62,569 bases of DNA, taken from Terriglobales bacterium (GTDB lineage Bacteria; Acidobacteriota; Terriglobia; Terriglobales; Acidobacteriaceae). Shown here piece by piece: positions 216 to 61,911 of this stretch. Below the pieces are notes generated by a model that was not told where the DNA came from, did no database searches, and saw only the letters and a list, made by a program, of their open reading frames with translations. Location of the stretch: positions 1-62,569 of the forward strand of contig DAIPJJ010000002.1 of assembly GCA_036770325.1 (NCBI GenBank), written 5' to 3'. The translations under genes and the position numbers were made by a program. The stretch's first letter is position 1. Every line of letters begins with the position of its first letter.

Positions 216-236
216 TCAATATAAAGGCGAATTTGA

Positions 237-260
237 CACGACTGAAGTCGTGCCCTTCCC
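237..260. repeat. family B hairpin repeat (cacgac-tgaa-gtcgtg + cccttccc)
   Basis: The 24-nt string cacgactgaagtcgtgcccttccc is identical to 55504-55527 and is the exact reverse complement of 53956-53979. It forms a 6-bp stem with a 4-nt loop. Confidence 0.8.
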
Positions 261-394
261 AGGCCTGCTCGCATTCAATTTTGCCGTGATCCGCTCTGCG
301 GTTCGCGATCCGCCCCGTTTGACCTTAACCTCTTGCAGCGATTAGGATTTCCCTTTGTCCCCGCAGTCCAACTAAATTCTGAGCGAGGAGCCAC

Positions 395-21640: not shown

Positions 21641-23071
21641 CTATCTCTTCTCCACCACAGCCGGCTGAATCTCTTCCACATCGACCAGGTTGGTCGGGTA
21701 GCGCCCCGTGTAACATGCTGTGCAGTACGTCGTCTTTTCGCCGTCACGGCAGGCTTTCTTCAAGCCGTCCAGCGAAAGATACGCCAGTGAATCTGCGCCG
21801 ACATATTGCCGGATTTGCTCAATGGTGTTGTTCGCCGCGATGAGCTCGTTCCTGCGCGGCGTGTCCACGCCGTAGAAGCACGGCGAAATGGTCGGAGGGC
21901 AGGAGATGCGCATGTGAACTTCTTTCGCGCCCGCACTGCGCACCATGCGGACAATTTTTCGGCTGGTCGTCCCGCGCACGATGGAATCGTCGATCAATAC
22001 AACACGCTTGCCCTCAAGCAGGCTGCGCACCGGATTCAGCTTGAGCCGCACTCCGAAATCGCGTACTGATTGCTGTGGCTCAATGAACGTGCGGCCGACA
22101 TAGTGATTGCGAATCAGCCCGAAGCGCAGCGGCAGGCCGCTTTCAGCGGCATAGCCCATTGCCGCGGTTACGCCTGAGTCGGGAACAGGCACGACGACGT
22201 CGGCATCGGCTGGAGCTTCGATGGCAAGCTCTCGCCCCAGTTGTTCGCGGCTCTCTTGCACAGCGCGTCCGAACACTCGGCTGTCCGGGCGAGAAAAATA
22301 AACATGCTCGAAGATGCAGCTCGACTGTGCCGCTGCCGGAGCATAGAACCGCGAACTCGTCCCCTCAGGACCAACAATTACCAGTTCGCCGGGCTTGACC
22401 TCGCGCTCGTAGGTTGCGCCGATGAGATCAAAAGCGCAGGTTTCAGAGGCGAAAACAATTGTGTCGTGCAGGCGATCTCCGCTCGCAGCAATGCGCCCCA
22501 TCGCAAGCGGCCTGAATCCGTGGGGATCGCGTACGGCAAAGATACGATCGCGACTGATCATCACCAGTGAGAACGCGCCTTCCACCCGGCGCAGCGCATC
22601 GGCAATCGCTTCCGGCAACGTCTGTTCCCGGGATTGCGCGATGAGATGAACAATAACTTCGGTATCGCTGCTGGTCTGGAAGATCGAGCCTTGCGCTTCC
22701 ATGCGGGCGCGAATCTCACCTGCATTCGTGAGATTGCCATTGTGCGCCAGGGCGATCATGCCTTTATTGGACTGCACCATGATCGGTTGCGCGTTCAAGA
22801 GGGCCGAGTCGCCGGTGGTCGAATAGCGCGTGTGGCCGATGGCGAGGGTTCCGCGAATTCGCGAGAGCTTCTCTTCGGTGAAGATATCGGCCACGAGGCC
22901 CATCGACTTGTGAATGTGCAGCGACATGCCATCGGAGGTGACGATGCCTGCCGATTCTTGCCCCCGATGTTGCAGCGCATGCAGGCCCAGGTAGGCGAGC
23001 GTCTCCGCCTCAGGATGCGAGTAGATCGCTACTACGCCGCACTCATCGCGAAATTTGTCGCTTTTAGCCAT
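21641..23071 (-). CDS. purF: amidophosphoribosyltransferase
   Basis: 476 aa. It has the N-terminal propeptide plus catalytic Cys context DECGVVAIY, and the PRPP-binding VVLIDDSIVRGTT. Confidence 0.95.
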   Translation of the reverse strand: MAKSDKFRDECGVVAIYSHPEAETLAYLGLHALQHRGQESAGIVTSDGMSLHIHKSMGLVADIFTEEKLSRIRGTLAIGHTRYSTTGDSALLNAQPIMVQSNKGMIALAHNGNLTNAGEIRARMEAQGSIFQTSSDTEVIVHLIAQSREQTLPEAIADALRRVEGAFSLVMISRDRIFAVRDPHGFRPLAMGRIAASGDRLHDTIVFASETCAFDLIGATYEREVKPGELVIVGPEGTSSRFYAPAAAQSSCIFEHVYFSRPDSRVFGRAVQESREQLGRELAIEAPADADVVVPVPDSGVTAAMGYAAESGLPLRFGLIRNHYVGRTFIEPQQSVRDFGVRLKLNPVRSLLEGKRVVLIDDSIVRGTTSRKIVRMVRSAGAKEVHMRISCPPTISPCFYGVDTPRRNELIAANNTIEQIRQYVGADSLAYLSLDGLKKACRDGEKTTYCTACYTGRYPTNLVDVEEIQPAVVEKR

Positions 23072-23175
23072 CAGCCGTCAGCCCTCAGCTTTCAGCAAAA
23101 ACAAACACCTGTCATCCTGAGCGAAGCAGAATCACTCGCTTGCGGATGATTCTACGAAGTCGAAGGACCTATGTA
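23066..23175. repeat. composite repeat: family D (agccatcagccgtcagccctcagc) plus a family A variant (tgtcatcctgagcgaagc...gaagtcgaaggacct)
   Basis: The 24-nt block at 23066-23089 is the reverse complement of a block inside tilS (about 47853-47876). The gtcatcctgagcgaag / gaagtcgaaggacct words recur at 53480-53505. The element abuts the purF start codon. Confidence 0.7.
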
Positions 23176-23185
23176 CTTTCCGCAT

Positions 23186-25507
23186 TCAATTTACCGCGAC
23201 CGCCACTTCACTTCTCAATGCTCGCTCCAACGAGTTTTCGTATTCGTCGTTCAACTCAGTTATGCGAGCCGAGACCACACTCCCCCCGTCTAGCTTAATC
23301 TCTATTTTCTCAGGAACTGTCTCGCCCAGCAGATCGGCAAAAATGCCGTGTTTCTTCGCCACTTCTTTGATTCGCACCACGTTGGCTGGGTCGCAGGAGA
23401 TCACGATCCGGCTGGCATCTTCGCCAAACAGCACAAATTCCGGAGCAAGTCCGCCGGTATTCATATCCACCGAACACCCAATCCTCTTCGGTAACGAACA
23501 CCTAGCCAGCCCGACAGCGAGCCCGCCTTCCGAGCAATCATGCGCGGAATCGACCAACCCTGCCCCGATCAACTCGACGATCGTCTTCTGCAGCGCGGCC
23601 TCTTTTTCGAGCTCAAGCGCGGGTGGAAATCCCCAAAGCCCCCCGACAACTTCTTTGGCGTACTCCGATGAACCAAACTCAGTTTCTGCATCGGTCGCAT
23701 CACCCGGCTCTGAGCCGCGCAACAGAACCACAGCGCGCTCCGCTTCGCGGAAATGCGGGAACGTCGCTTTCGTCGAATCTTCCAGAATTCCAACCACTCC
23801 GAGCACCGGAGTCGGATAAATCGCTTCACCCAAGGTTTCGTTGTAGAAGCTGACATTGCCACCCGTAATCGGGATTTCCAACTCCTCGCACGCCCGAGTG
23901 ATTCCATCAATGGCCTGGGAGAACTGCCACATAATCGGTGGCTTCTCGGGATTGCCAAAGTTCAGACAATTCGTCGCGCCGACCGGCACTGCTCCCGAAC
24001 AAGCCACGTTTCGTGCGGCTTCCGCCACGGCGTGCATCGCGCCGAGCTTGGGATCGAGATAGCACCAGCGTCCATTTCCATCGAGCGCCATCGAAAGCGC
24101 GCGCTGCGAGCCCTTGATTCGAATCACGCCCGCGTCGCCCGCGCCCGGGCCTTCAACGGTGTTCGTCTGCACCATCGAATCGTATTGCTGATAAATCCAT
24201 CGCTTGCTGCAGATGTTTTCGCTGGCGAGCAGCCGTTTCAAATCATCGGTGTAATCGGATTTCCCGCCGAGCTTCACATGCTCCGGCATCTCGCGCGAAA
24301 CCGGCGGCTCCCAGCGCTGCATCGGGCGCTTGTAAACCGGAGCGTCGTCGGTGAGCGCGGTGTTCGGAACTTCTGCCACAACTTCACCGTGCTGCAAGAC
24401 GCGCATCGTGTTCTCGCCAATGACTTTTCCGACTTCGACGGCGTCCAGTCCCCACTTGCGGAACACGCGATAGACTTCCTCCTCGCGTCCCTTCTGCGCG
24501 ACCAGCAGCATGCGCTCCTGCGACTCGCTCAGCATGATCTCGTAGGCGCTCATGCCGGTTTCTCGTTGCGGCACGCGGTCCATCTCGATCTCGACTCCTA
24601 CACCGCCGCGCGCGCCCATCTCGCAGGTGGAGCATGTCAGGCCTGCAGCGCCCATGTCCTGAATGCCAATAATGGCGCCGGTTTGCATGGCTTCGAGGCA
24701 GGCTTCGAGCAGAAGCTTTTCTAAAAACGGATCGCCAACCTGCACATTCGGCCGCTTGGCTTCTGATTCTTCGCTGAATTCCTCGCTGGCCATGGTCGCG
24801 CCATGAATACCGTCGCGGCCGGTTTTCGCGCCAACGTAAATCACTGGATTGCCAACGCCGGAAGCCTTGGCATAAAAAATCTGGTCTTTGCGCACGAGTC
24901 CCAGAGCAAACGCATTCACCAGAGGATTGCCGGAGTAGCAGGGCTCAAACTTCGTCTCGCCGCCGAGATTCGGAACTCCGAAGCAATTGCCGTAGTGCGC
25001 GATGCCGCTGACCACACCTTCGAGGATAGAGTGATTGCGATGAATGTCGGACTGTGAACTGGCGGGCGAGGGCGCCCGCCCCACATGGGACTTAACCGGT
25101 CCGAACCGCAGCGAGTCCATCACCGCTACCGGCCTTGCGCCCATGGTGAAAATGTCGCGCAGGATTCCGCCGACGCCCGTGGTCGCTCCCTGGAATGGCT
25201 CAATAAACGAAGGATGGTTGTGGGACTCGATCTTGAACGCGCATGTCCAGCCGTCACCGATATCGATGATGCCTGCGTTTTCTCCCGGCCCTTGTACCAC
25301 ACGGCGGCTGCGGGTCGGCAGGCGCTTCAGATGTACACGCGAAGACTTATACGAGCAGTGCTCACTCCACATCACGCTAAAAATACCGAGCTCGGTCAAG
25401 GTGGGCTCGCGCCCGCCAAGCAGCGATTTAATACGGTCGTATTCCTCGCTGGTCAGTCCATGGTCACGCAGGACTTGAGGGGTGATGTCCAGTGTGGCGG
25501 TGGTCAT
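23186..25507 (-). CDS. purL: phosphoribosylformylglycinamidine synthase subunit PurL
   Basis: 773 aa with the PurL N-terminal pattern [32 protein letters not shown] and duplicated AIR-synthase-like domains. It is adjacent to purF. Confidence 0.95.
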
Positions 25508-39398: not shown

Positions 39399-40544
39399 AT
39401 GTCGCGAACGAAAGCCGTGCGGTTGACCGAGACGGTTAAAGCCGCAGGTTGAGCTTCCAAGCTGAGTCCGGCGGCGCTGGACAAGGTGCTTGGGAAATTA
39501 GCCCGGCAACATGATCCGAACGTCCTTGTCGGCTTTGATCACGCCGACGACGCGGGCGTGTATCTAATCGCGCCTGAGCAGGCACTGGTTCAGACAGTCG
39601 ATTTCTTTACGCCAATCATTGATGATCCCTATACTTTCGGCCAGATCGCGGCGACGAATTCTCTAAGCGACATTTACGCGATGGGCGGAAAACCGCTGAC
39701 CGCGCTCGCGCTGGTGTGCTTCCCGGGAAAAGGTGATCTCGAAGTTCTTGAGCGAATCCTGGCCGGCGGGCTCTCAAAGATGGTCGAGGCCGGATGCACG
39801 ATCATCGGCGGCCACAGCATTCGCGATGAGGAAACAAAGTTTGGATATTCGGTCACAGGGACAGTGAATCCGAAGCGAGTGCTGCAAAACGGCGGGGCGC
39901 GTGCCGGTGATCGACTGCTTTTGACGAAGCATATCGGCACGGGAGTGATTTCCACTGCGATAAAGAAAGGCGTCGCCAAGCAATCCTGGATCGATGCGGC
40001 CGTAAAGTCGATGACGACACTGAACAAGAGCGCGGCGGAGGTAATTGCCGGATTTGAGGAAGATCAACATCCCCACCCTCCCCTGAAGGGGAAGGATGGG
40101 GCGCACCGTTCGTCGGCGAACGACCAACGACCGACGACCGACGACGGCTTTTTCGTTCACGCCCTTACCGACGTCACGGGCTTCGGACTGATCGGTCACC
40201 TTCGCGAAATGCTGCTAGCTTCGGATGGCGTTTCCGCGAGACTGCAGGCCTCGAAAATTCCTTTGCTAGAAGGCGCGCTTGATTGTGTCCGCGCCGGACA
40301 CATCCCTGGCGGACTTAACGCCAACCGCGAATTCGCGGAATGCATTGTGGATTACGGGGACGCCGTCCCAGAGAATCTCAAAACAATCCTTTTCGATCCC
40401 CAGACCGCCGGAGGACTACTCATATCTGCGTCGGAGGGGACAGCTTCAGGTCTCAAGAGTGCCCTTGTGAGTGCCGGAGTTCACGCTGTCGAAATCGGAG
40501 AGATAGTCGAAGCTACGAAAGCCGTGATTATGATCGATCCCTAG
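39399..40544 (+). CDS. selD: selenide, water dikinase (selenophosphate synthetase), selenocysteine-containing
   Basis: The ORF-track entry 39486-40544 lacks the conserved N-terminus. Reading in the same frame from ATG 39399 gives MSRTKAVRLTETVKAAG-U-ASKLSPAALDKVL, with TGA at 39450-39452. This aligns to the E. coli SelD [25 protein letters not shown] region, with U at the catalytic Cys17 position. Confidence 0.85.
39457..39493 (+). promoter_or_regulatory. candidate bacterial SECIS stem-loop
   Basis: Starts 5 nt after the UGA. The lower stem is ccaagc/gcttgg (39457-62 / 39488-93). The upper stem is gtccggc/gctggac (39466-72 / 39476-82, one G-U) with a small G-rich apical loop. Confidence 0.5.
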
Positions 40545-46922: not shown

Positions 46923-48356
46923 TCACCTGATGCTCTGGCCAGTTAGCTCCGCCTCTCGAATCAGTACGCCTTCACTACCCTGCGCCTGAAAGTCGCGCCT
47001 GACCCCGAATCCGCGCAGCCAGACGACCTCAGCGCCGCTTGCCACCACCGGCCAGAGTCTTTTCCGCTCGCCTGTGATGTGCCTGTCTTGCAGCAGTTCC
47101 TTGATCTTTTTAGGTTGTTTGGTGTGTGCGGGCCAGAAGCGCTCACCCGCCCGCCAATTACGGACTGCAAAGCCCGCTCTTGTCTGGCCGGGATCGATCA
47201 GATGTTGCGGATCATGCTTTTGATCATTTTCTGAGCCTACCAACACCGTCTCGATCCGGATTCCCGCTTCCGGTACAACGAGGATACCTGGTACCGACAG
47301 GTCGTAGCAGTAGTCAGAAGTTCTTTCGGAAGAACTGCAGAACTGGAGCTCGCTTCTATGCCGAGTAACAACCAGGCTGGCTTGCACGACGGTGCGGTTT
47401 CCTTCACGCGTCAGGCCCAGGATTTCTTCCACGTGCCGGAACTCAAGCGCCAGCCCCATCGATTCCGCCGCCGCGCGGATGAGCCGCCTCCGCAGAGCCA
47501 GCGGCAGTTTTCCCAGCGCGCACCAATTGAGATTTCCGCAGCCTTCGTTCTTAAGCCAAAGCTGAGGCAACAATCGCCTGATCTCGTGTTCCCAATATTC
47601 TTCCTCTCCGCGCGCAATACCTGCCGTTTCAGCCAGGACTTCGCAAATCGAAGGATTCAACTCCTCTTCGAGGCGCGGAAGAATTTCGTGACGGATCCGG
47701 TTCCGGGTATGCCGCAAGTCCTGGTTGGTCGCGTCTTCGCGCCAGCTTTGGCCAATTTCGGCCAGATATTCCCGCAATTGCGATCGGCGCGTCCCAAGCA
47801 GCGGGCGAATGACACACGGACGTGTATCTCGAAAATCTGCTGAGTTGTCTTGGCTGAGGGCTGACGGCTGATGGCTGACGGCTAGCTTTGGGAAAATCCC
47901 TGCCAACCCCCTCGTTCCCGCCCCTCTTACAAGTTTCAACAGCACCGTTTCAGCTTGATCATCCAAGGTGTGTGCGGTCGCAACCCGATCAACTCCCGAC
48001 TGCAAAATGCGCCGAAAGAATTCATACCGCAGTTCCCGAGCGGCAGCTTCCAGGCTCAACTTCTTCTCGGCAGAATGTCTCTTGACGTCCCGGCTTTCGC
48101 AATTGATTTCCAGCCCATGCGTGGCCGCCAGCGAGCGAACGAACTGCTCGTCTGCGTCCGAATCTGTGCCCCTCAGATTGTGATTCAGGTGAATAGCAGA
48201 AGGGACAATGCCGAGCTCATCCCTCAATTCGAGCATCAAGCGCAGCAGCGCAACCGAGTCCGCACCGCCGGAAACAGCAACGCCGACCCGATCACCCGCA
48301 CGTACTAGCTGGTGCTTGCGAATGTAGCCGAACACCGATTGCGGCAGCTTGCGCAC
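46923..48356 (-). CDS. tilS: tRNA(Ile)-lysidine synthase
   Basis: 477 aa with the PP-loop VAVSGGADSVALL. It lies upstream of ftsH, as in many bacteria. Confidence 0.9.
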   Translation of the reverse strand: MRKLPQSVFGYIRKHQLVRAGDRVGVAVSGGADSVALLRLMLELRDELGIVPSAIHLNHNLRGTDSDADEQFVRSLAATHGLEINCESRDVKRHSAEKKLSLEAAARELRYEFFRRILQSGVDRVATAHTLDDQAETVLLKLVRGAGTRGLAGIFPKLAVSHQPSALSQDNSADFRDTRPCVIRPLLGTRRSQLREYLAEIGQSWREDATNQDLRHTRNRIRHEILPRLEEELNPSICEVLAETAGIARGEEEYWEHEIRRLLPQLWLKNEGCGNLNWCALGKLPLALRRRLIRAAAESMGLALEFRHVEEILGLTREGNRTVVQASLVVTRHRSELQFCSSSERTSDYCYDLSVPGILVVPEAGIRIETVLVGSENDQKHDPQHLIDPGQTRAGFAVRNWRAGERFWPAHTKQPKKIKELLQDRHITGERKRLWPVVASGAEVVWLRGFGVRRDFQAQGSEGVLIREAELTGQSIR

Positions 48357-48375
48357 GGCTCAATGGTACAACCGT

Positions 48376-52603: not shown

Positions 52604-53257
52604 ATGCAGCTCACGCCGGGTCGCCTATCAATCGTGGTGCTGCTCGCACTTCGCATGACTGCGCTCGGCGCTCAGGACGACGCCCGTATTCCCCCCGAGG
52701 TCCGATTCAAGTCCGGCTACACAAATTCCGTTTTCAAGCCGCCGGATTTTGCGTCCGCCATGTTGTGGGGAATTGCAATTGCGGACAGCCGCGTGGCCGG
52801 ATATGAAAAAGCACAAATCGAAGTTGCACACACTCAACTCTCATGCCGCGTTGATGGCCGTGATGTCGTTCTGAACGATGACTACGGCAGCGTCCGCGGC
52901 GGACTCTTCCGCCGATATCCCTGGTTTGGCACCGATGCCCACGAGACGATGCCGCTGGCGTTTTCAGATGATCACAGAACCGTAATCCTGAAAGTCGGCA
53001 CCCATCCCGACCGCGTCTGGCATTTCTGGGCGGCATCGCCACGGGCGGAAATTCCGGCGGGTAAGCTCAAGGGTTGCACCATCAAAATCCTCGCACGAAT
53101 TTCGCCCGGAGCTCTCCTTCAGGTCGGCTTCGACTACTGGCGCAACTCTACGATTGGCTATGGTTCTGGGGGCAACAATCACGAAACCGGCGCCAGCAAG
53201 TGGTACTTACCATCGGATGCCTGGCAAGAAGCCGTGTTTAGCGATATTAAGCATTAG
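52604..53257 (+). CDS. secreted hypothetical protein
   Basis: 217-aa ORF with a signal-like N-terminus, divergent from the peptidase gene. I recognise no family. Confidence 0.5.
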   Translation: MQLTPGRLSIVVLLALRMTALGAQDDARIPPEVRFKSGYTNSVFKPPDFASAMLWGIAIADSRVAGYEKAQIEVAHTQLSCRVDGRDVVLNDDYGSVRGGLFRRYPWFGTDAHETMPLAFSDDHRTVILKVGTHPDRVWHFWAASPRAEIPAGKLKGCTIKILARISPGALLQVGFDYWRNSTIGYGSGGNNHETGASKWYLPSDAWQEAVFSDIKH

Positions 53258-53372
53258 CGGCGAGCATCGAGCGGTGAGCGATGAGCAACATTCGTGCTCG
53301 CTCGTCGCTCGCGGCTCACTGCTCGCCGCTCCCCCGGTCCGTTGTAAGCTAGGAGCTAACAGCTAACAGCTT
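53256..53372. repeat. degenerate-word palindrome (gagcgatgagc / gctcgctcgtc) plus agctaacagctaacagc tandem words
   Basis: gcggcgagcatcgagcggtgagcgatgagc is approximately the reverse complement of gctcgctcgtcgctcgcggctcactgctcgccgc. It lies immediately upstream of the mnmG 5' duplication. Confidence 0.5.
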
Positions 53373-53522
53373 ACTTTGCAGTTCACTGAACAGTTCGATG
53401 TGGTTGTCGTCGGGGCCGGGCACGCCGGCTGCGAAGTTGAGGCGTTTACGCGGCGTCTGAGCCGCGTGCCGAATCCTGAGCGAAGTCGAAGGACCTCGCC
53501 GAGCAGAGAAGAATCGAAACGG

Positions 53523-55946
53523 ATGCAGTTTACTGAACAATTCGATGTTGTTGTCGTCGGAGCCGGACATGCCGGTTGCGAGGCCGCCGTCGCCTGCGCG
53601 CGCATGGGCCTGAAGACTGCGCTCTACACACTCAATGTCGATCTCATCGCCCAAATGTCGTGCAATCCGGCTGTGGGTGGCATCGCCAAGGGGCACCTCG
53701 TCCGCGAGGTGGATGCCCTCGGCGGCATCATGGGAGAAGTCACAGACGCGGTCGGCATTCAGTTTCGCTTGCTTAACACTTCGCGCGGCCCGGCGGTCTG
53801 GTCTCCGCGGGCGCAGTGTGACAAGCAAGCCTATCGCCTGAAGATGCGCGAGGTTCTCGAATCGCAGCCCAATCTGAAGATCAAGCAGGCGGAAGTGGCG
53901 GATCTGATCGTGGAGACTAGCCAACAGCCATCAGCCATGAGCCGTCAGCAAGAACGGGAAGGGCACGACTTCAGTCGTGCCGATAGTGGTCGCGAAGAGA
54001 ACAAGGCAGCTCTAGCTGCGCAGGATTTCATCGACGACCACCGCCGAGTTCTCGGCATCACGCTGCGCGACGGCCGCACCGTAGGCGCCAAGGCCGTGAT
54101 CATCACCACGGGGACCTTCCTCAATGGGCTGATTCATTGCGGCGAGCAGCAATATCCCGCGGGCCGCTCCGGTGAGCCCAATGCCGTTCTGCTCGGCGAA
54201 TCCCTCAAGAAGCTCGGTCTCCGCGGATGCCGTTTGAAGACCGGAACTCCGCCGCGGCTCGATGGCAGAACTATCGACTGGTCGAAATTCCAGGTCCAGC
54301 CCGGAGATCCCGATCCCACGCCGTTCAGCTTCCGCACGAAACGTGTCGCGCATCACGACTCGCAAGTACCGTGCTACATCGCCTGGACTACGCCGGAAAC
54401 GCATCGCATCATTCACGAAAATGTTCACCGCTCACCGATGTACAGCGGCCAGATACAGTCGATCGGCCCGCGCTATTGTCCTTCGATCGAAGACAAAATC
54501 GTCAAATTTCCGGACAAGACGACGCATCAGCTCTTCCTTGAGCCCGAAGGCCTGAACACGCACGAGATTTATGTAAATGGGATGAGCACCTCACTGCCGG
54601 TGGAAGTGCAATTGGCGATCTTGAAGTCCGTTCCCGGGCTCGAAACCGCTGAGATGCTGCGCCCGGGCTATGCGATCGAGTACGACGCCATCGATCCGAC
54701 CGAACTCGAGCGCACGCTCGAAACCAAGAAAATTGCTGGATTGTTTCTCGGCGGCCAGATCAACGGCACCTCCGGATATGAAGAGGCCGCTTGCCAGGGA
54801 TTGATGGCCGGGATCAACGCGGGACTGAAAGTAAAGAACCAGCCGCCGCTGATTCTCGACCGCACAGAAGCCTATACGGCAATTTTGATTGATGACCTGA
54901 TTTCGAAAGGCACAAACGAGCCTTATCGCATGTTTACCTCGCGCGCGGAATTTCGCCTGCACCTGCGGATTGATAACGCCGACCGCCGCCTTACCCCGCA
55001 CGGCCGCCGCGTGGGATTGATTTCCGATGAGGCCTGGTCGGATTTTTTGGCCAAGCAGGAACGCCAGCAGCGTATGAAAGAGCTGCTGGAGAAAACGAAG
55101 CTGACTACGGCAATGCTGGAGAGCATTCAGCACTCAGCATTCAGCACTCAGGAATCGTCATTGGCCCCTTCGGCGCTCCGCTCCTCAGGGCAAGCTAAGA
55201 ACGGTCGTTCGTCGTTGGCCAATCAGCGCAAGATTGCTGATAGCGACTCTGCTCTGGAACGAAAGCACGACCGGGAAGGGCACGAGTTTACTCGTGCCGA
55301 AAACGTAGACGTAGATGATGCGGCTTCAGCCGCTCAGGGCACTAGAACCGATCTGACCTCGGCCCTCGGCCAGCCGCTTGCGCAGTTGCTCAAACGCCCA
55401 GAGATCACGATTGAGCATCTGGTTCCCGTTCTCCGCAAGCTTGTGCCGGAGCTCTTTAGACCCTCAGCGGCTAAAGCCGAGAATTCCAGTCACGCTGGTT
55501 CGGCACGACTGAAGTCGTGCCCTTCCCGATCCGTAGATGATCCGGGTTCGTTGTGGCCCGACCAATCAGAAAACCGAGGCTCACCGATAGACAATCAAGC
55601 TCTTGCCAACGACCAACGACCAACGGCCCACGGCGCCTTGCCTTCTTCCATCCGCAATGAACTCAAGTCCGTCGAAACTGAGATCAAATACGAAGGCTAT
55701 CTCCAGCAGCAGCAGCGCGCCATTGAGCGCCTGAAAAAAGCCGAGCAGCGCAACATACCCGAGTGGTTCGACTACCGCTCCGTCAGCGGCCTCTCGCGCG
55801 AAATGCAGGAGAAGCTCACCAAAATCCGCCCGCGCACTCTCGGATACGCTTCGCGCATCCCCGGCGTCACGCCCGCGGCCGTATCACTCGTAAATGTGTA
55901 CATCGAGATTCAGGCCAAGCGCCGCGAACAAGTGGCGGCGATTTAA
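53523..55946 (+). CDS. mnmG: tRNA uridine 5-carboxymethylaminomethyl modification enzyme MnmG (GidA)
   Basis: FAD motif [14 protein letters not shown], plus [32 protein letters not shown] and the C-terminal [12 protein letters not shown] prefer the ATG at 53523. The in-frame TTG at 53376 begins a duplicated copy of the first 20 codons. The protein carries three long non-homologous inserts. Confidence 0.92.
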
Positions 55947-60978: not shown

Positions 60979-61100
60979 AGCCGGTAAGTAGGGGATACCG
61001 CCGGGAGATCCCAACGCGAAAGTTTCGGCGCAGATAATTCGGCGCGACGAAGAAGACGCCCGCCAGAGATGGGCTTCGAAGCCGCAGGACAAGTGGTGAA

Positions 61101-61235
61101 GGGTGCCCCGTCCTTGTCTCGCGATTTGTGCGAGACAGGGCGGGGATTTTGACTCTTGATTCATCGTGGAAGACCTAAACCCGAAGTCAAAGTCCCCACC
61201 CTGTCGCAAAGTGCGCGACAAGGATGTGGCACCCT
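61101..61235. repeat. inverted pair of RAYT-associated REP elements
   Basis: 61101-61156 (gggtgccccgtccttgtctcgcgatttgtgcgagacagggcggggattttgac) is roughly the reverse complement of 61184-61235 (aagtcaaagtccccaccctgtcgcaaagtgcgcgacaaggatgtggcaccc). Each unit contains its own hairpin (ccctgtcgc...gcgacaagg). Confidence 0.8.
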
Positions 61236-61338: not shown

Positions 61339-61911
61339 ATGCCTTGGAGTCTCAAGCGGTTTCAACAAGCACGATGTCTGCACTTCATCACGTTTAGTTG
61401 TCGTCATCGCGAACCGTTACTCGGAACGCCCGAGTCACGTGACATGTTCGAGATCACGTTCGAACAAGTTCGGCGGTGGTACGAATTTTACGTTCGTGGA
61501 TACGTCGTGATGCCCGAGCACGTTCACCTGCTGATCAGTGAGCCGAAACGCGCAAAACTCTCGACTGCTCTACAGATGATCAAACAGAACGTAGCACGGG
61601 AACTGCGCCTTCCTGAGGGCAATCCGTTCTGGCAAGAGCGGTACTACGATTTCAATGTGTGGAGTGAGACGAAGCGCGTCGAGAAGTTACGGTACATTCA
61701 TCGCAATCCGGTGCGGCGAGGTTTGGTTGCAAGGCCGGAAGATTGGAAGTGGAGCAGCTTTCGACATTACGCGACTGGAGCTGAGGGAGTGGTCGAGATT
61801 GAATCGGAGTGGACGGTCAGGAAACGGGAGCGGATCACTTCTGTAAACCAAAGTCAAAATCCCCGCCCTGTCGCAAAGAACGCGACAAGGACGGGGCACC
61901 CTCGAAATTAG
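61339..61911 (+). CDS. REP-associated tyrosine transposase (RAYT; IS200/IS605 TnpA-like Y1 transposase)
   Basis: 190 aa with the HUH motif PEHVHLLISEP and the catalytic Tyr context LRYIHRNPVRRGLV. The N-terminus CLHFITFSCRHREPLL is typical of RAYTs. The 3' end runs into a REP copy. Confidence 0.85.
   Translation: MPWSLKRFQQARCLHFITFSCRHREPLLGTPESRDMFEITFEQVRRWYEFYVRGYVVMPEHVHLLISEPKRAKLSTALQMIKQNVARELRLPEGNPFWQERYYDFNVWSETKRVEKLRYIHRNPVRRGLVARPEDWKWSSFRHYATGAEGVVEIESEWTVRKRERITSVNQSQNPRPVAKNATRTGHPRN
61850..61901 (+). repeat. RAYT-associated REP element (downstream copy)
   Basis: aaagtcaaaatccccgccctgtcgcaaagaacgcgacaaggacggggcaccc has the same family and orientation as 61184-61235. It is inverted relative to 61101-61156, so the transposase gene is bracketed by inverted REPs. 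Confidence 0.8.

Follow-up and report, generated by a model that had tools for sequence, protein, structure and literature searches.

Three order-wide hypervariable inserts in the MnmG of Terriglobales are probably repeat DNA of non-coding type that settled in permissive loops

The mnmG gene of a Terriglobales bacterium contains three in-frame inserts, each of which is a mosaic of dispersed repeats. We think it probable that repeat DNA of the non-coding type settled in frame in three permissive loops of MnmG and is translated there as disordered loops. The gene lies in the stretch of DNA that we analyzed (the window), which is 62,569 nucleotides of contig DAIPJJ010000002.1, and the same three sites carry inserts in all of the close relatives that we examined.

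By sequence similarity, the host gene is mnmG (gidA). Its open frame (53376-55946 on the forward strand) encodes 856 amino acids if counted from the TTG at 53376, and this is the form that NCBI annotates; the database gene call starts from the ATG at 53523 and has 807 amino acids (53523-55946, forward strand). Precomputed Pfam assignments for the protein are GIDA, GIDA_C_1st, and SAM_GIDA_C, and the similarity spans the FAD-binding, insertion, and C-terminal helical domains of solved MnmG structures. A phmmer comparison with the PDB matched E. coli MnmG in three blocks (query 48-187, 214-588, and 763-850; E = 2.5e-188). The three segments that were left unaligned are exactly the inserts that had been proposed, in a sequence-only reading of this DNA, to have no E. 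coli counterpart and to account for the excess length. Deleting them leaves 807 - 177 = 630 amino acids, and this shortened protein and E. coli MnmG align end to end as a single block (3-624 versus 23-646 of the tagged chain, which are native residues 3-626), with E = 2e-201 and 674 bits, as compared to 631 bits in pieces with the inserts in place.

The sequence-only reading also held that the frame and the flanking catalytic motifs are intact, and we agree. The FAD motif GxGxxG (G13-A14-G15-H16-A17-G18) and the catalytic cysteines C47 and C319 (in PRYCPS) are invariant across 97 homologues; these cysteines correspond to C47 and C277 of E. coli, whose importance has been described (PMC12397908). 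An uninterrupted second mnmG would have called the significance of the inserts into doubt. There is none on contig DAIPJJ010000002.1, and in the best 80 loci from relatives there is one locus per genome, which bears inserts. These loci include two complete chromosomes from long reads (OY970205.1 and OY970265.1, examined as 22-kb pieces).

All three inserts are on the forward strand and each has a length that is a multiple of 3, with boundaries that are accurate to a few codons (for example, the array in insert 2 begins at 55122). Insert 1 (53916-54041; 126 nt, 42 amino acids) is in the FAD-binding domain, between E131 and N132 of E. coli MnmG. Inserts 2 (55128-55349; 222 nt, 74 amino acids) and 3 (55458-55640; 183 nt, 61 amino acids) both fall in the C-terminal helical domain, where they interrupt the E. 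coli sequence at 493/494 and 534/535, respectively. They are separated by a conserved island (55350-55457, forward strand) whose P-E aligns with P516-E517 of E. coli MnmG, which are residues that contact MnmE (PMC12397908). An AlphaFold2 model of the 807-aa protein, built with 97 close homologues, had a mean pLDDT of just 57, with part of the conserved core below 50, so the placement of the inserts rests on the alignment to E. coli MnmG and on published domain limits. Used only locally, the model shows the inserts as coil with pLDDT below 50 and with confident flanks. The inserts had been expected to map to surface loops and the C-terminal helical domain; by alignment, inserts 2 and 3 are in that domain and insert 1 is at a beta-turn within the FAD domain.

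Each insert contains one two-hairpin element of about 68 nt plus 7-nt tandem arrays, and the element has the forward orientation in two of them (inserts 1 and 2) and the inverted one in insert 3. In insert 1, the array (AGCCATC, 4.4 copies according to TRF; 53919-53949, forward strand) matches 23066-23089 and 47853-47885, and the element (53956-54024, forward strand) comprises GGGAAGG, an 8-bp hairpin at 53962-53981, a spacer, and a small hairpin (GCAGCTCTAGCTGC at 54006-54019). The array of insert 2 is AGCACTC/AGCATTC (4.3 copies by TRF; 55122-55151, forward strand), and in most homologues this site starts with the word IQxSAxSxQ. Its element (55273-55339, forward strand) belongs to a subfamily with a compensated stem pair and has the hairpins GGCACGAG-TTTA-CTCGTGCC at 55279-55298 and GCGGCTTCAGCCGC at 55320-55333. 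The inverted element of insert 3 (55461-55527, reverse strand; CCCTCAGCGGCTAAAGCCG ... GGCACGACTGAAGTCGTGCC-CTTCCC) is read as SAAKA...SARLKSCPS, and it is followed by an array of CCAACGA (4.3 copies by TRF; 55605-55634, forward strand) that is read as ANDQRPTA and matches 40116-40150. Besides the three period-7 arrays within the inserts, TRF identified two more upstream of mnmG.

Several observations bear out the suggestion that the inserts are repeat DNA that happens to be read in frame. First, positions 237-260 of the window are matched at 24/24 nucleotides by both insert 1 (inverted) and insert 3; inserts 1 and 3 match each other at 29/29 positions, inverted; and insert 2 contains a 90% copy of the repeat. 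Second, a single hairpin encodes REGHDFSRA where it is forward (inserts 1 and 2) and SARLKSCPS where it is inverted (insert 3). Third, insert DNA gave 1295 HSPs at 186 sites outside of mnmG, while length-matched conserved controls gave 2. The 20-nt hairpin occurs at four sites in the window, three of them in mnmG, as compared to zero in 100 shuffles. The fourth is an intergenic copy of hairpin 1 (232-261, reverse strand) upstream of an acyl-carrier-protein gene. The repeat words had been described as intergenic, and for 237-260 this is so, but the copies at 40.1 kb and 47.86 kb are within selD and tilS.

The composition of the inserts also differs from that of the rest of the gene. In the core, the GC content of codon positions 1, 2, and 3 is.63/.43/.74, and in the inserts it is.66/.58/.60: the inserts show no GC structure by codon position and are composed like non-coding DNA. 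Just 16% of their residues are hydrophobic, versus 32% in the core, and among the six frames of the inserts, the one in use is the least hydrophobic. RNA folding gave z = -4.0 for insert 1 and -2.9 for the element in insert 3, versus +2.1 and 0 for conserved controls. An Rfam scan of mnmG found no family, with one chance sub-threshold match to a snoRNA in conserved sequence. If the extra segments were conserved across distant taxa, they would be genuine domains; the peptide of insert 2 matched no protein family in an exhaustive phmmer search of 1.84 billion representatives.

The consensus of the element, which we built from 112 metagenome copies, is a unit of about 67-69 nt with sharp ends and with two unlike hairpins, whose stems are 8 bp and 5 bp. 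The ends are unlike as well (the left end reads GGGAAGGGCAC, and the right end, in reverse complement, reads CCCTCAGCGGC), so the element does not have terminal inverted repeats. No GTAG or CGTC tag is present in GGGAAGGGCACGACTTCAGTCGTGCC or in the 112-copy consensus, and no consistent flank repeat is visible around the 112 aligned copies. Near the mnmG elements, there is a 58-nt direct duplication around the 5' element (discussed below), and there is a weak similarity (14/24) around insert 1.

An exact 26-mer from the element is present on at least 120 soil metagenome contigs. There, the element is read in all five open frames, in Lhr, GyrA, PheT, Dus, RNase R, and other enzymes; within mnmG, the hairpin uses two of the five open frames (88 and 11 cases, and 0 for the remaining three). 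Because the repeat is read in several frames, orientations, and hosts, it must be conserved at the level of DNA rather than protein. A doubled consensus of the element's peptide gave, in a word-indexed search of proteins, four weak matches to tiny hypothetical ORFs. We also considered whether the hairpin is concentrated in mnmG, as is the case for 15 of 20 sites in mnmG-centered loci. But among the matches listed, none of 122 metagenome sites is in mnmG, so we rejected this idea. At least 17 of these sites are in recognized genes, and the others either look intergenic or have no gene assigned to them. Finally, a stem pair of the hairpin covaries (D..S in 70 cases, E..T in 18, and mixed in about 2), and the hairpin 20-mer is identical at the first site in several species whose proteins are only about 75% identical. 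This points to either selection on the hairpin or ongoing homogenization, and not to plain neutrality.

A survey of relatives had been suggested, and it shows that the inserts are not private to one genome. All of the 200 close relatives that we examined carry mosaic inserts at these three sites (R1, R2, and R3), and the inserts are variable. Both the 120 database homologues (697-835 amino acids) and the loci from 78 species vary there, with differing repeat words. Across the 78 species, R1 is 9-75 amino acids and R2 is 17-82 amino acids; insert 3 is the longest R3 among the 78 aligned species representatives, and there are longer ones among the 120 database homologues. Two alleles that are about 96.5% identical have unrelated cassettes of about 110 nt at R3, within flanks that are about 99% identical. 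So the description of the inserts as repeat insertions stands, but the three sites are order-wide hypervariable hot spots with turnover of cassettes. The frame is open through all of the inserts in 79 of 80 species; the exception (L028) has a TGA within R2. Every relative keeps at least 9 amino acids at R1 and 17 at R2, and we saw no empty site, which leaves room for a linker that is needed.

In-frame insertion is not special to mnmG. In the window, tilS (46926-48359, reverse strand) has a repeat of the same heptamer family at 47852-47883 (reverse strand), within an insertion of about 17 amino acids that includes VSHQPSALSQDNSAD; selD (39453-40541, forward strand) has an insert at 40038-40154 (forward strand) with a GC-rich hairpin and a CGACCAA array (HPHPPLKGKDGAHRSSANDQRPTTDDG); and purL has a 15-aa insert at 25041-25088 (reverse strand) that contains the palindrome GGCGGGCGCCCTCGCCCGCC. 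With mnmG, this makes at least 4 hosts among 45 ORFs. Hosts beyond the window, also in frame, include tgt, mnmE, pheT, dus, lhr, and gyrA.

All three of the tRNA-related ORFs in the window (mnmG, tilS, and selD) are hosts, as compared to 1 of the 42 others (purL). Similarly, among the conserved neighbors of mnmG in 80 species, the only recurrent hosts are tgt, mnmE, and tilS (selD is a host in three loci), and dus and pheT are recurrent hosts in the unbiased metagenome sample. The repeats might prefer enzymes that handle tRNA, above all those acting at the wobble position, rather than landing randomly in tolerant genes, but we are doubtful. The stricter idea that only tRNA enzymes are hosts is weakened by insertions in purL, an agmatine deiminase, a HemN-like enzyme, an M56 peptidase, and GyrA. 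If the preference is real, then it would imply a targeting mechanism that is tied to these genes; alternatively, the hairpins or their peptides may have been co-opted to regulate the tRNA-modification machinery, with the hot spots as sites of cassette exchange.

Repeat DNA is also present at the start of mnmG. As had been claimed, its 5' end is duplicated: a copy of the first 58 nt or so lies upstream at 53377-53434 (forward strand) and is 88% identical to 53524-53581. The upstream copy is in the native upstream context, which is homologous to that of two other loci (L001 and L002) that start there with GTG or TTG. Between the two copies is a repeat-bearing element (53435-53522, forward strand) with CGCGGC-GTCTGA-GCCGCG plus the word cctgagcgaagtcgaaggacc; it shares words with 23114-23170 and is conserved in L004, L006, and L011. 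The duplicated architecture is found in those three loci and in L015, L029, L037, and L038. L011 and L015 appeared to have frameshifts, but these are due to the duplication and not to broken genes.

How might these mosaics have arisen? The building blocks would be the REP-like element of about 68 nt with its two hairpins, the 7-nt arrays, and short dispersed words, which together would form BIME-like mosaics. We propose that selection spares only the in-frame, stop-free, and hydrophilic versions of the inserts, which is why mnmG would remain functional. The inserts would be transcribed and then translated into surface loops, one in the beta-turn of the FAD domain and two on either side of LLKRPE, a conserved segment in the C-terminal helical domain. 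The conservation of the frame suggests translation, and the loops are probably disordered and may be close to neutral. Cassettes would be gained, lost, and swapped; the probable route is that dispersed copies recombine or that templates are switched between them, and the 7-nt arrays at the insert borders could supply the homology for recombination. Alternatively, a single-strand transposase that recognizes the hairpins could move them.

It is also possible, although we consider it unlikely, that the inserts are functional additions that were selected for: they could be disordered linkers that tune the assembly of MnmE with MnmG or the binding of tRNA, or the hairpins could regulate expression via translation pausing, mRNA stability, or a factor that recognizes REPs. 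That R1 and R2 are never empty in relatives would make sense in this case, as would the perfect stems that covary across species, the position of inserts 2 and 3 on either side of the segment whose P-E contacts MnmE, and the fact that the hosts neighboring mnmG (tgt, mnmE, tilS, and selD) are all tRNA wobble-base enzymes. But we do not see why functional additions would vary freely in sequence, length, and repeat family, even between alleles that are about 96.5% identical. Also, we found no conserved peptide, the composition resembles that of non-coding DNA, and the same element occurs in intergenic DNA and, in any frame, in unrelated enzymes; purL, the agmatine deiminase, and the HemN-like enzyme are hosts too.

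Multidomain enzymes commonly have hydrophilic linkers of low complexity, and at R1 and R2 every relative has at least a little sequence beyond the core. So the inserts could be ordinary fast-evolving linkers of Terriglobales MnmG, whose likeness to repeats is secondary (because the dispersed copies came from coding sequence or because of a shared compositional bias). This would be surprising given the exact matches of 24-29 nt in both orientations, the 1295 HSPs versus 2 for controls, the defined hairpin anatomy and sharp ends of the element, and the exact 26-mer on at least 120 metagenome contigs, with none in mnmG among the matches listed; we think it very unlikely.

We give even less weight to the idea that mnmG is a pseudogene or that the inserts are removed before the protein is made (as an intron, an intein, or by translational bypass). 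The TGA in R2 of L028 and the strong hairpins within the coding region might suggest this, but the core is strongly constrained with invariant catalytic residues, and removal at the level of RNA would not require lengths that are multiples of 3 or a frame that is open in 79 of 80 species. The lack of an Rfam match argues against an intron. As for inteins, segments of 42-74 amino acids are too short, and because the inserts vary freely between relatives, they do not have conserved motifs. Least probable of all is that repeat copies ended up in mnmG through misassembly of short reads: the window is from a metagenome-assembled contig that is rich in short repeats, but the same 856-aa protein is found, with 6 substitutions, in a second and independent assembly, and hundreds of independent assemblies (including OY970205.1 and OY970265.1) have inserts at the same sites and always in frame.

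Our best reading, by analogy, is that these selfish REP/BIME-like repeats work like the palindromic elements of Rickettsia, even though the elements are apparently unrelated and the phylum is different. Rickettsia palindromic elements (RPEs; Ogata et al. 2000) are hairpin repeats that lie in frame within housekeeping genes, whose proteins remain intact, and they also have non-coding copies (PMC10969869, PMC3733652). The repeats in mnmG are likewise dispersed and hairpin forming, and they are found in non-coding DNA as well as in frame in conserved genes that keep their ORFs. However, RPEs have units of 100-150 bp and belong to a reduced intracellular genome, while the units here are about 67-69 nt with two different hairpins and the host, from the phylum Acidobacteriota, lives freely in soil and has a large genome (we distinguish the element from RPE families by unit size and lineage). 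Furthermore, the repeats here form mosaics with 7-nt arrays, one gene has three or four insertions, and throughout an order these sites are hypervariable and swap cassettes.

The sequence-only reading knew of no description of such inserts for this lineage. We found no specific report of acidobacterial intragenic repeats in the literature, but in-frame REPs are already known from several phyla. These intragenic REPs, which bear a GTAG or CGTC tag (Di Nocera et al. 2013), in some cases add a few amino acids to the products of genes for DNA repair, RNA helicase, and tRNA synthetase and of truB (PMC3733652). That survey does not report acidobacterial intragenic copies; it does report RAYT-like "TIRYT" transposases in cultured Acidobacteria (PMC3733652). 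As in REP/RAYT (REPIN) systems, a short GC-rich palindrome (the 20-nt hairpin) is present in many copies. On the other hand, the mnmG hairpin lacks both of these tags, the element couples two unlike hairpins where REP systems form an inverted doublet, and the inserts (42-74 amino acids) are much longer than intragenic REPs.

The BIMEs of E. coli are extragenic mosaics of a palindromic unit and other short motifs, in variable order and orientation. The mnmG inserts are mosaics too, but they are predicted to be translated parts of genes. Cyanobacteria have short tandemly repeated repetitive sequences (STRRs), which are abundant and dispersed tandem repeats of heptanucleotides. Intergenic TAACTGA repeats in the Beggiatoaceae form 7-nt tandem arrays (PMC4679880). 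The arrays in mnmG have the same period but lie within coding sequence at the borders of inserts, and they give the same 7-aa periodic peptide from all three frames. Last, intragenic MITEs (such as the Coxiella QMITE, ERIC, and Anabaena MITEs) are non-autonomous repeats that fuse in frame with ORFs (PMC10969869). These are also small repeats within host ORFs, but the ends of the mnmG element are not inverted repeats.

Selfish DNA that sits within protein-coding genes has been associated with reduced intracellular genomes, and these results widen its range to the abundant free-living Acidobacteriota of soil. The apparent density is also much higher, with at least 4 of 45 ORFs as hosts in 62 kb and a single conserved enzyme that bears three or four insertions. 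For those who work with metagenome-assembled genomes from soil, there are practical consequences: such inserts inflate and fragment the alignments of marker genes, confuse start-codon calls (for example, 807 versus 856 amino acids), and can mislead domain annotation and phylogenomics. Because the same loops are re-used across the order with different cassettes, the genes amount to a natural and replicated experiment on which loops of a protein can take 10-100 extra residues. And inserts like those in mnmG illustrate how non-coding repeats turn into coding sequence.

An open reading frame at 53376-55946 (forward strand), on this contig from a metagenome-assembled genome of the Terriglobales (Acidobacteriota), encodes MnmG, the FAD enzyme that, together with MnmE, forms cmnm5U in the wobble position of tRNA. 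The protein has 856 amino acids if translation begins at the TTG at 53376 and 807 if it begins at the ATG at 53523. Both forms are present in the collection that we searched: the 807-aa gene call comes from this contig and the 856-aa NCBI annotation from a second assembly. When we searched solved structures with the protein, E. coli MnmG matched in three separate blocks, and the three segments that the sequence-only reading had singled out as lacking a canonical counterpart were left unaligned. These are insert 1 (53916-54041; 126 nt or 42 aa), insert 2 (55128-55349; 222 nt or 74 aa), and insert 3 (55458-55640; 183 nt or 61 aa), for a total of 177 aa. With the inserts deleted, the remaining 630 aa align to E. 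coli residues 3-626 in a single stretch, and the score is 674 bits instead of 631. The earlier coordinates and the expected core of about 630 aa were correct to within a few codons, and the frame and flanking motifs are intact as it had claimed: the gene is one open frame, and neither the FAD motif nor either catalytic cysteine varies in 97 homologues.

These inserts are repeat DNA and not protein domains. With BLAST, the insert DNA of 81 mnmG genes produced 1295 HSPs, which fall at 186 sites outside mnmG, as compared to 2 HSPs for length-matched conserved segments of the same gene. If the extra segments were conserved domains, an alternative that the sequence-only reading had named, we would look for relatives of the peptides, and the insert 2 peptide had no match at E <= 0.001 among 1.84 billion representative proteins. 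A scan against Rfam found no family either. The GC content at codon positions 1, 2, and 3 is.63,.43, and.74 in the core and is flat in the inserts (.66,.58, and.60). Hydrophobic residues make up 16% of the insert peptides and 32% of the core, and the five other frames of the insert DNA would all give more hydrophobic peptides than the one in use.

Each insert contains one copy of an element of about 68 nt, at 53956-54024 (insert 1, forward), 55273-55339 (insert 2, forward), and 55461-55527 (insert 3, inverted). Its consensus, from 112 copies, reads GGGAAGG, an 8-bp hairpin (GGCACGAC-TTCA-GTCGTGCC), a spacer of about 20 nt, a small hairpin (GCGGC-TTYA-GCCGC), and TGAGG. The 8-bp hairpin is read as REGHDFSRA or REGHEFTRA in the forward copies and as SARLKSCPS in the inverted copy. 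That the inserts are built of words also found between genes had been noticed from the sequence, and it is borne out by an intergenic copy at 237-260 that matches both insert 1 and insert 3 at 24/24 nt and by 29/29 identical nucleotides, in opposite orientation, between those two inserts. The hairpin 20-mer has four sites in the window and none in 100 shuffles. Each insert is also bordered by a tandem array of period 7 (53919-53949, 55122-55151, and 55605-55634, respectively), with relatives at 23066-23089, 40116-40150, and 47853-47885. Direct reading shows that all frames of a 7-nt array encode one and the same peptide of period 7 aa (QPSAISH for CAGCCAT and RPTTNDQ for CGACCAA, for example), which may help these arrays to survive in coding sequence. 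Another repeat family lies near the end of the contig: 58-nt direct repeats at 61178-61235 and 61845-61902 are 86% identical and have matching inverted copies at 61100-61161.

A survey of relatives, which the sequence-only reading had suggested, found variation at the same three places throughout. The best 120 database homologues (several named Terriglobales bacterium, and most of the others from metagenome assemblies of JGI and ENA) are 73-81% identical to this MnmG, have 697-835 aa, and all vary there. Among 78 species representatives, the corresponding regions between conserved anchors span 9-75 aa (R1), 17-82 aa (R2), and 2-52 aa (R3); in this set, R3 is longest in the window, whose R2 is also among the longest. 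The three sites are order-wide hot spots. Different species have different repeat words at the same site, including one whose reverse strand reads SLVVGRSS. Two mnmG alleles (P0043 and P0143) differ by 29 mismatches over 824 aa and have unrelated cassettes of about 110 nt at R3, within flanks whose DNA is about 99% identical; they give direct evidence that a cassette was recently replaced. Lengths are otherwise stable within 90% clusters. Several species whose MnmG proteins are only about 75% identical share an identical 20-nt hairpin in R1, and the hairpin is better preserved than the surrounding codons. Its stem pair 8 covaries: in R1 and R2 copies from the window and from the mnmG loci of related species L001-L041, GAC..AGT (D..S) occurs 70 times, GAG..ACT (E..T) 18 times, and mixed pairs about twice. 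Simple decay explains the identity and the covariation less well than does ongoing homogenisation or selection acting on the hairpin.

We placed the inserts by aligning the insert-deleted protein and subtracting the 20-residue tag of the PDB chain from the numbering. Inserts 2 and 3 (between E. coli residues 493 and 494 and between 534 and 535) lie in the C-terminal helical domain (398-629), where the sequence-only reading had expected the inserts to be, along with surface loops; insert 1 (between E131 and N132) lies in the FAD-binding domain (100-160), with domain limits from PMC12397908. From its context (DLIVE/NDRVVG), the insert 1 site appears to be a beta-turn. Inserts 2 and 3 flank a conserved island whose P-E aligns with E. 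coli P516-E517, which contact MnmE in the cryo-EM complex (PMC12397908). An AlphaFold model from 97 close homologues, which is poor overall (mean pLDDT 57), weakly suggests that all three inserts are coil (local pLDDT <50) between confident flanks.

The 5' duplication reported earlier is real: the ~58 nt at the start of mnmG are present in two copies (53377-53434 and 53524-53581, 88% identical), separated by an 88-nt repeat-bearing element. The same architecture, with copies about 143-147 nt apart, is found in L004, L006, L011, L015, L029, L037, and L038, so that 8 of 81 loci have it. The upstream copy is in the native upstream context, and the nearest species (L001 and L002) start there with GTG or TTG. 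Since the copies in L011 and L015 are in different frames, translation there has to begin at the downstream start, and the frameshifts in these two loci are only apparent. In the window the copies are in frame, so either start is possible; we favour the ATG at 53523. The two copies of one genome are more alike than copies from different genomes, a pattern that suggests concerted evolution or recurrent events. The upstream copy of L015 forms a short ORF whose terminal TGA overlaps the ATG of mnmG. Just upstream of the window's mnmG are a 31-nt imperfect inverted repeat (53256-53286 and 53300-53330) and, within 53256-53371, two more 7-nt arrays (CGCTCGC x4.7 and AGCTAAC x2.6), in the same style as the repeats within the gene.

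The inserts are not an assembly artefact, as a second assembly encodes the same protein with 6 substitutions and long-read complete chromosomes carry inserts as well. Including its inserts, mnmG is one open frame in 79 of 80 related species. The exception is L028 (CAVOWU010000002.1, a long-read MAG), with a single in-frame TGA in R2 (codon 539 of the match) in an otherwise intact gene; this may be an error of the sequencing, a nonsense mutation of recent origin, or a sign that the gene is split. If the segments were removed from the RNA, then there would be no need to keep the frame, so such removal is unlikely and we infer that the inserts are translated. The sequence-only reading had also named, as an alternative, a second uninterrupted mnmG with this copy unexpressed. 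There is no second mnmG on this contig, and each genome appears once among the best 80 mnmG loci; a more diverged copy could lie elsewhere in the genome.

At least 4 of the 45 ORFs in the window host in-frame repeat inserts. In tilS (tRNA-lysidine synthase; 46926-48359, minus strand), a CAGCCAT array at 47852-47883 adds about 17 aa in frame, including VSHQPSALSQDNSAD; insert 1 of mnmG has the same heptamer family. In selD (selenide, water dikinase; 39453-40541, plus strand), a GC-rich hairpin (CCCCACCCTCCCCTGAAGGGGAAGGATGGGG) and a CGACCAA array add about 32-39 aa in frame (around 40038-40154). In purL (23189-25507, minus strand), an in-frame insert of 15 aa relative to Thermus PurL (around 25041-25088) contains the palindrome GGCGGGCGCCCTCGCCCGCC, whose family is dispersed in related loci too. 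Nearby, the purF start codon (23069-23071, minus strand) lies inside the AGCCATC array at 23066-23089, the unit's CAT being the ATG; this array fills part of the purL-purF spacer and adjoins a gtcatcctgagcgaag-type repeat.

In the mnmG flanks of the 80 related species, repeats of the same families lie within 24 of 46 tgt, 13 of 33 mnmE, and 10 of 19 tilS ORFs (in tilS, at the same place as in the window), as well as in selD at three loci and at one site in PEP mutase. We found none within secD, secF, ftsH, ruvA, tonB, exbB, TPR proteins, thioredoxins, a kinase, or an aldo-keto reductase in these flanks. An exact 26-mer query occurs on at least 120 metagenome contigs. Of the 122 sites among the matches listed, none is in mnmG and at least 17 are in frame within recognised genes, where each of the hairpin's five open frames is in use: pheT (four sites, two confirmed by Pfam and two from a near-identical flanking peptide), dus (four), lhr and a class-28 methyltransferase (two each), and gyrA, RNase R, an M56 peptidase, agmatine deiminase, and a HemN-like enzyme (one each). 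Therefore, this element is a repeat with a wide distribution, and a substantial minority of the copies lie in coding sequence.

Palindromic repeats inserted in frame have been described in Rickettsia (RPEs). Intragenic REPs occur in DNA repair, helicase, tRNA synthetase, and truB genes of several other bacteria (PMC3733652), and intragenic MITEs are known as well (PMC10969869), with these REPs and MITEs at lower density. Our inserts work alike but belong to none of these groups: the hairpin lacks the GTAG or CGTC tag of REPs, the element lacks the terminal inverted repeats of MITEs, and, unlike RPEs, it is a unit of about 68 nt with two unlike hairpins, in another phylum. Our literature search found no description of such inserts for Acidobacteriota. 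As far as we have seen, what goes beyond published cases is the mosaic of repeats with heptamer arrays, the presence of three or four insertions in a single conserved enzyme, the repeated use of one set of loops throughout an order, with swapping of cassettes, and the apparent density of inserts.

We propose that dispersed REP/BIME-like repeats and 7-nt arrays enter genes and that only in-frame, stop-free, hydrophilic versions in tolerant loops would persist. A resident repeat would then provide a homologous stretch, or a hairpin to be targeted, through which more exchange with the pool of copies across the genome could take place, and this would yield hot spots whose content is mosaic and fast-changing. 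Mobility might come from a hairpin-recognising Y1/HUH transposase or from recombination and template switching; RAYT-like "TIRYT" genes have been reported in cultured Acidobacteria (PMC3733652). The recurrent hosts beside mnmG (tgt, mnmE, and tilS, with selD in three loci) are all linked to modification of the tRNA wobble base, and with dus and pheT among the metagenome sites it looks as if the hosts lean towards tRNA-handling enzymes. This leaning may only reflect which enzymes tolerate inserts.
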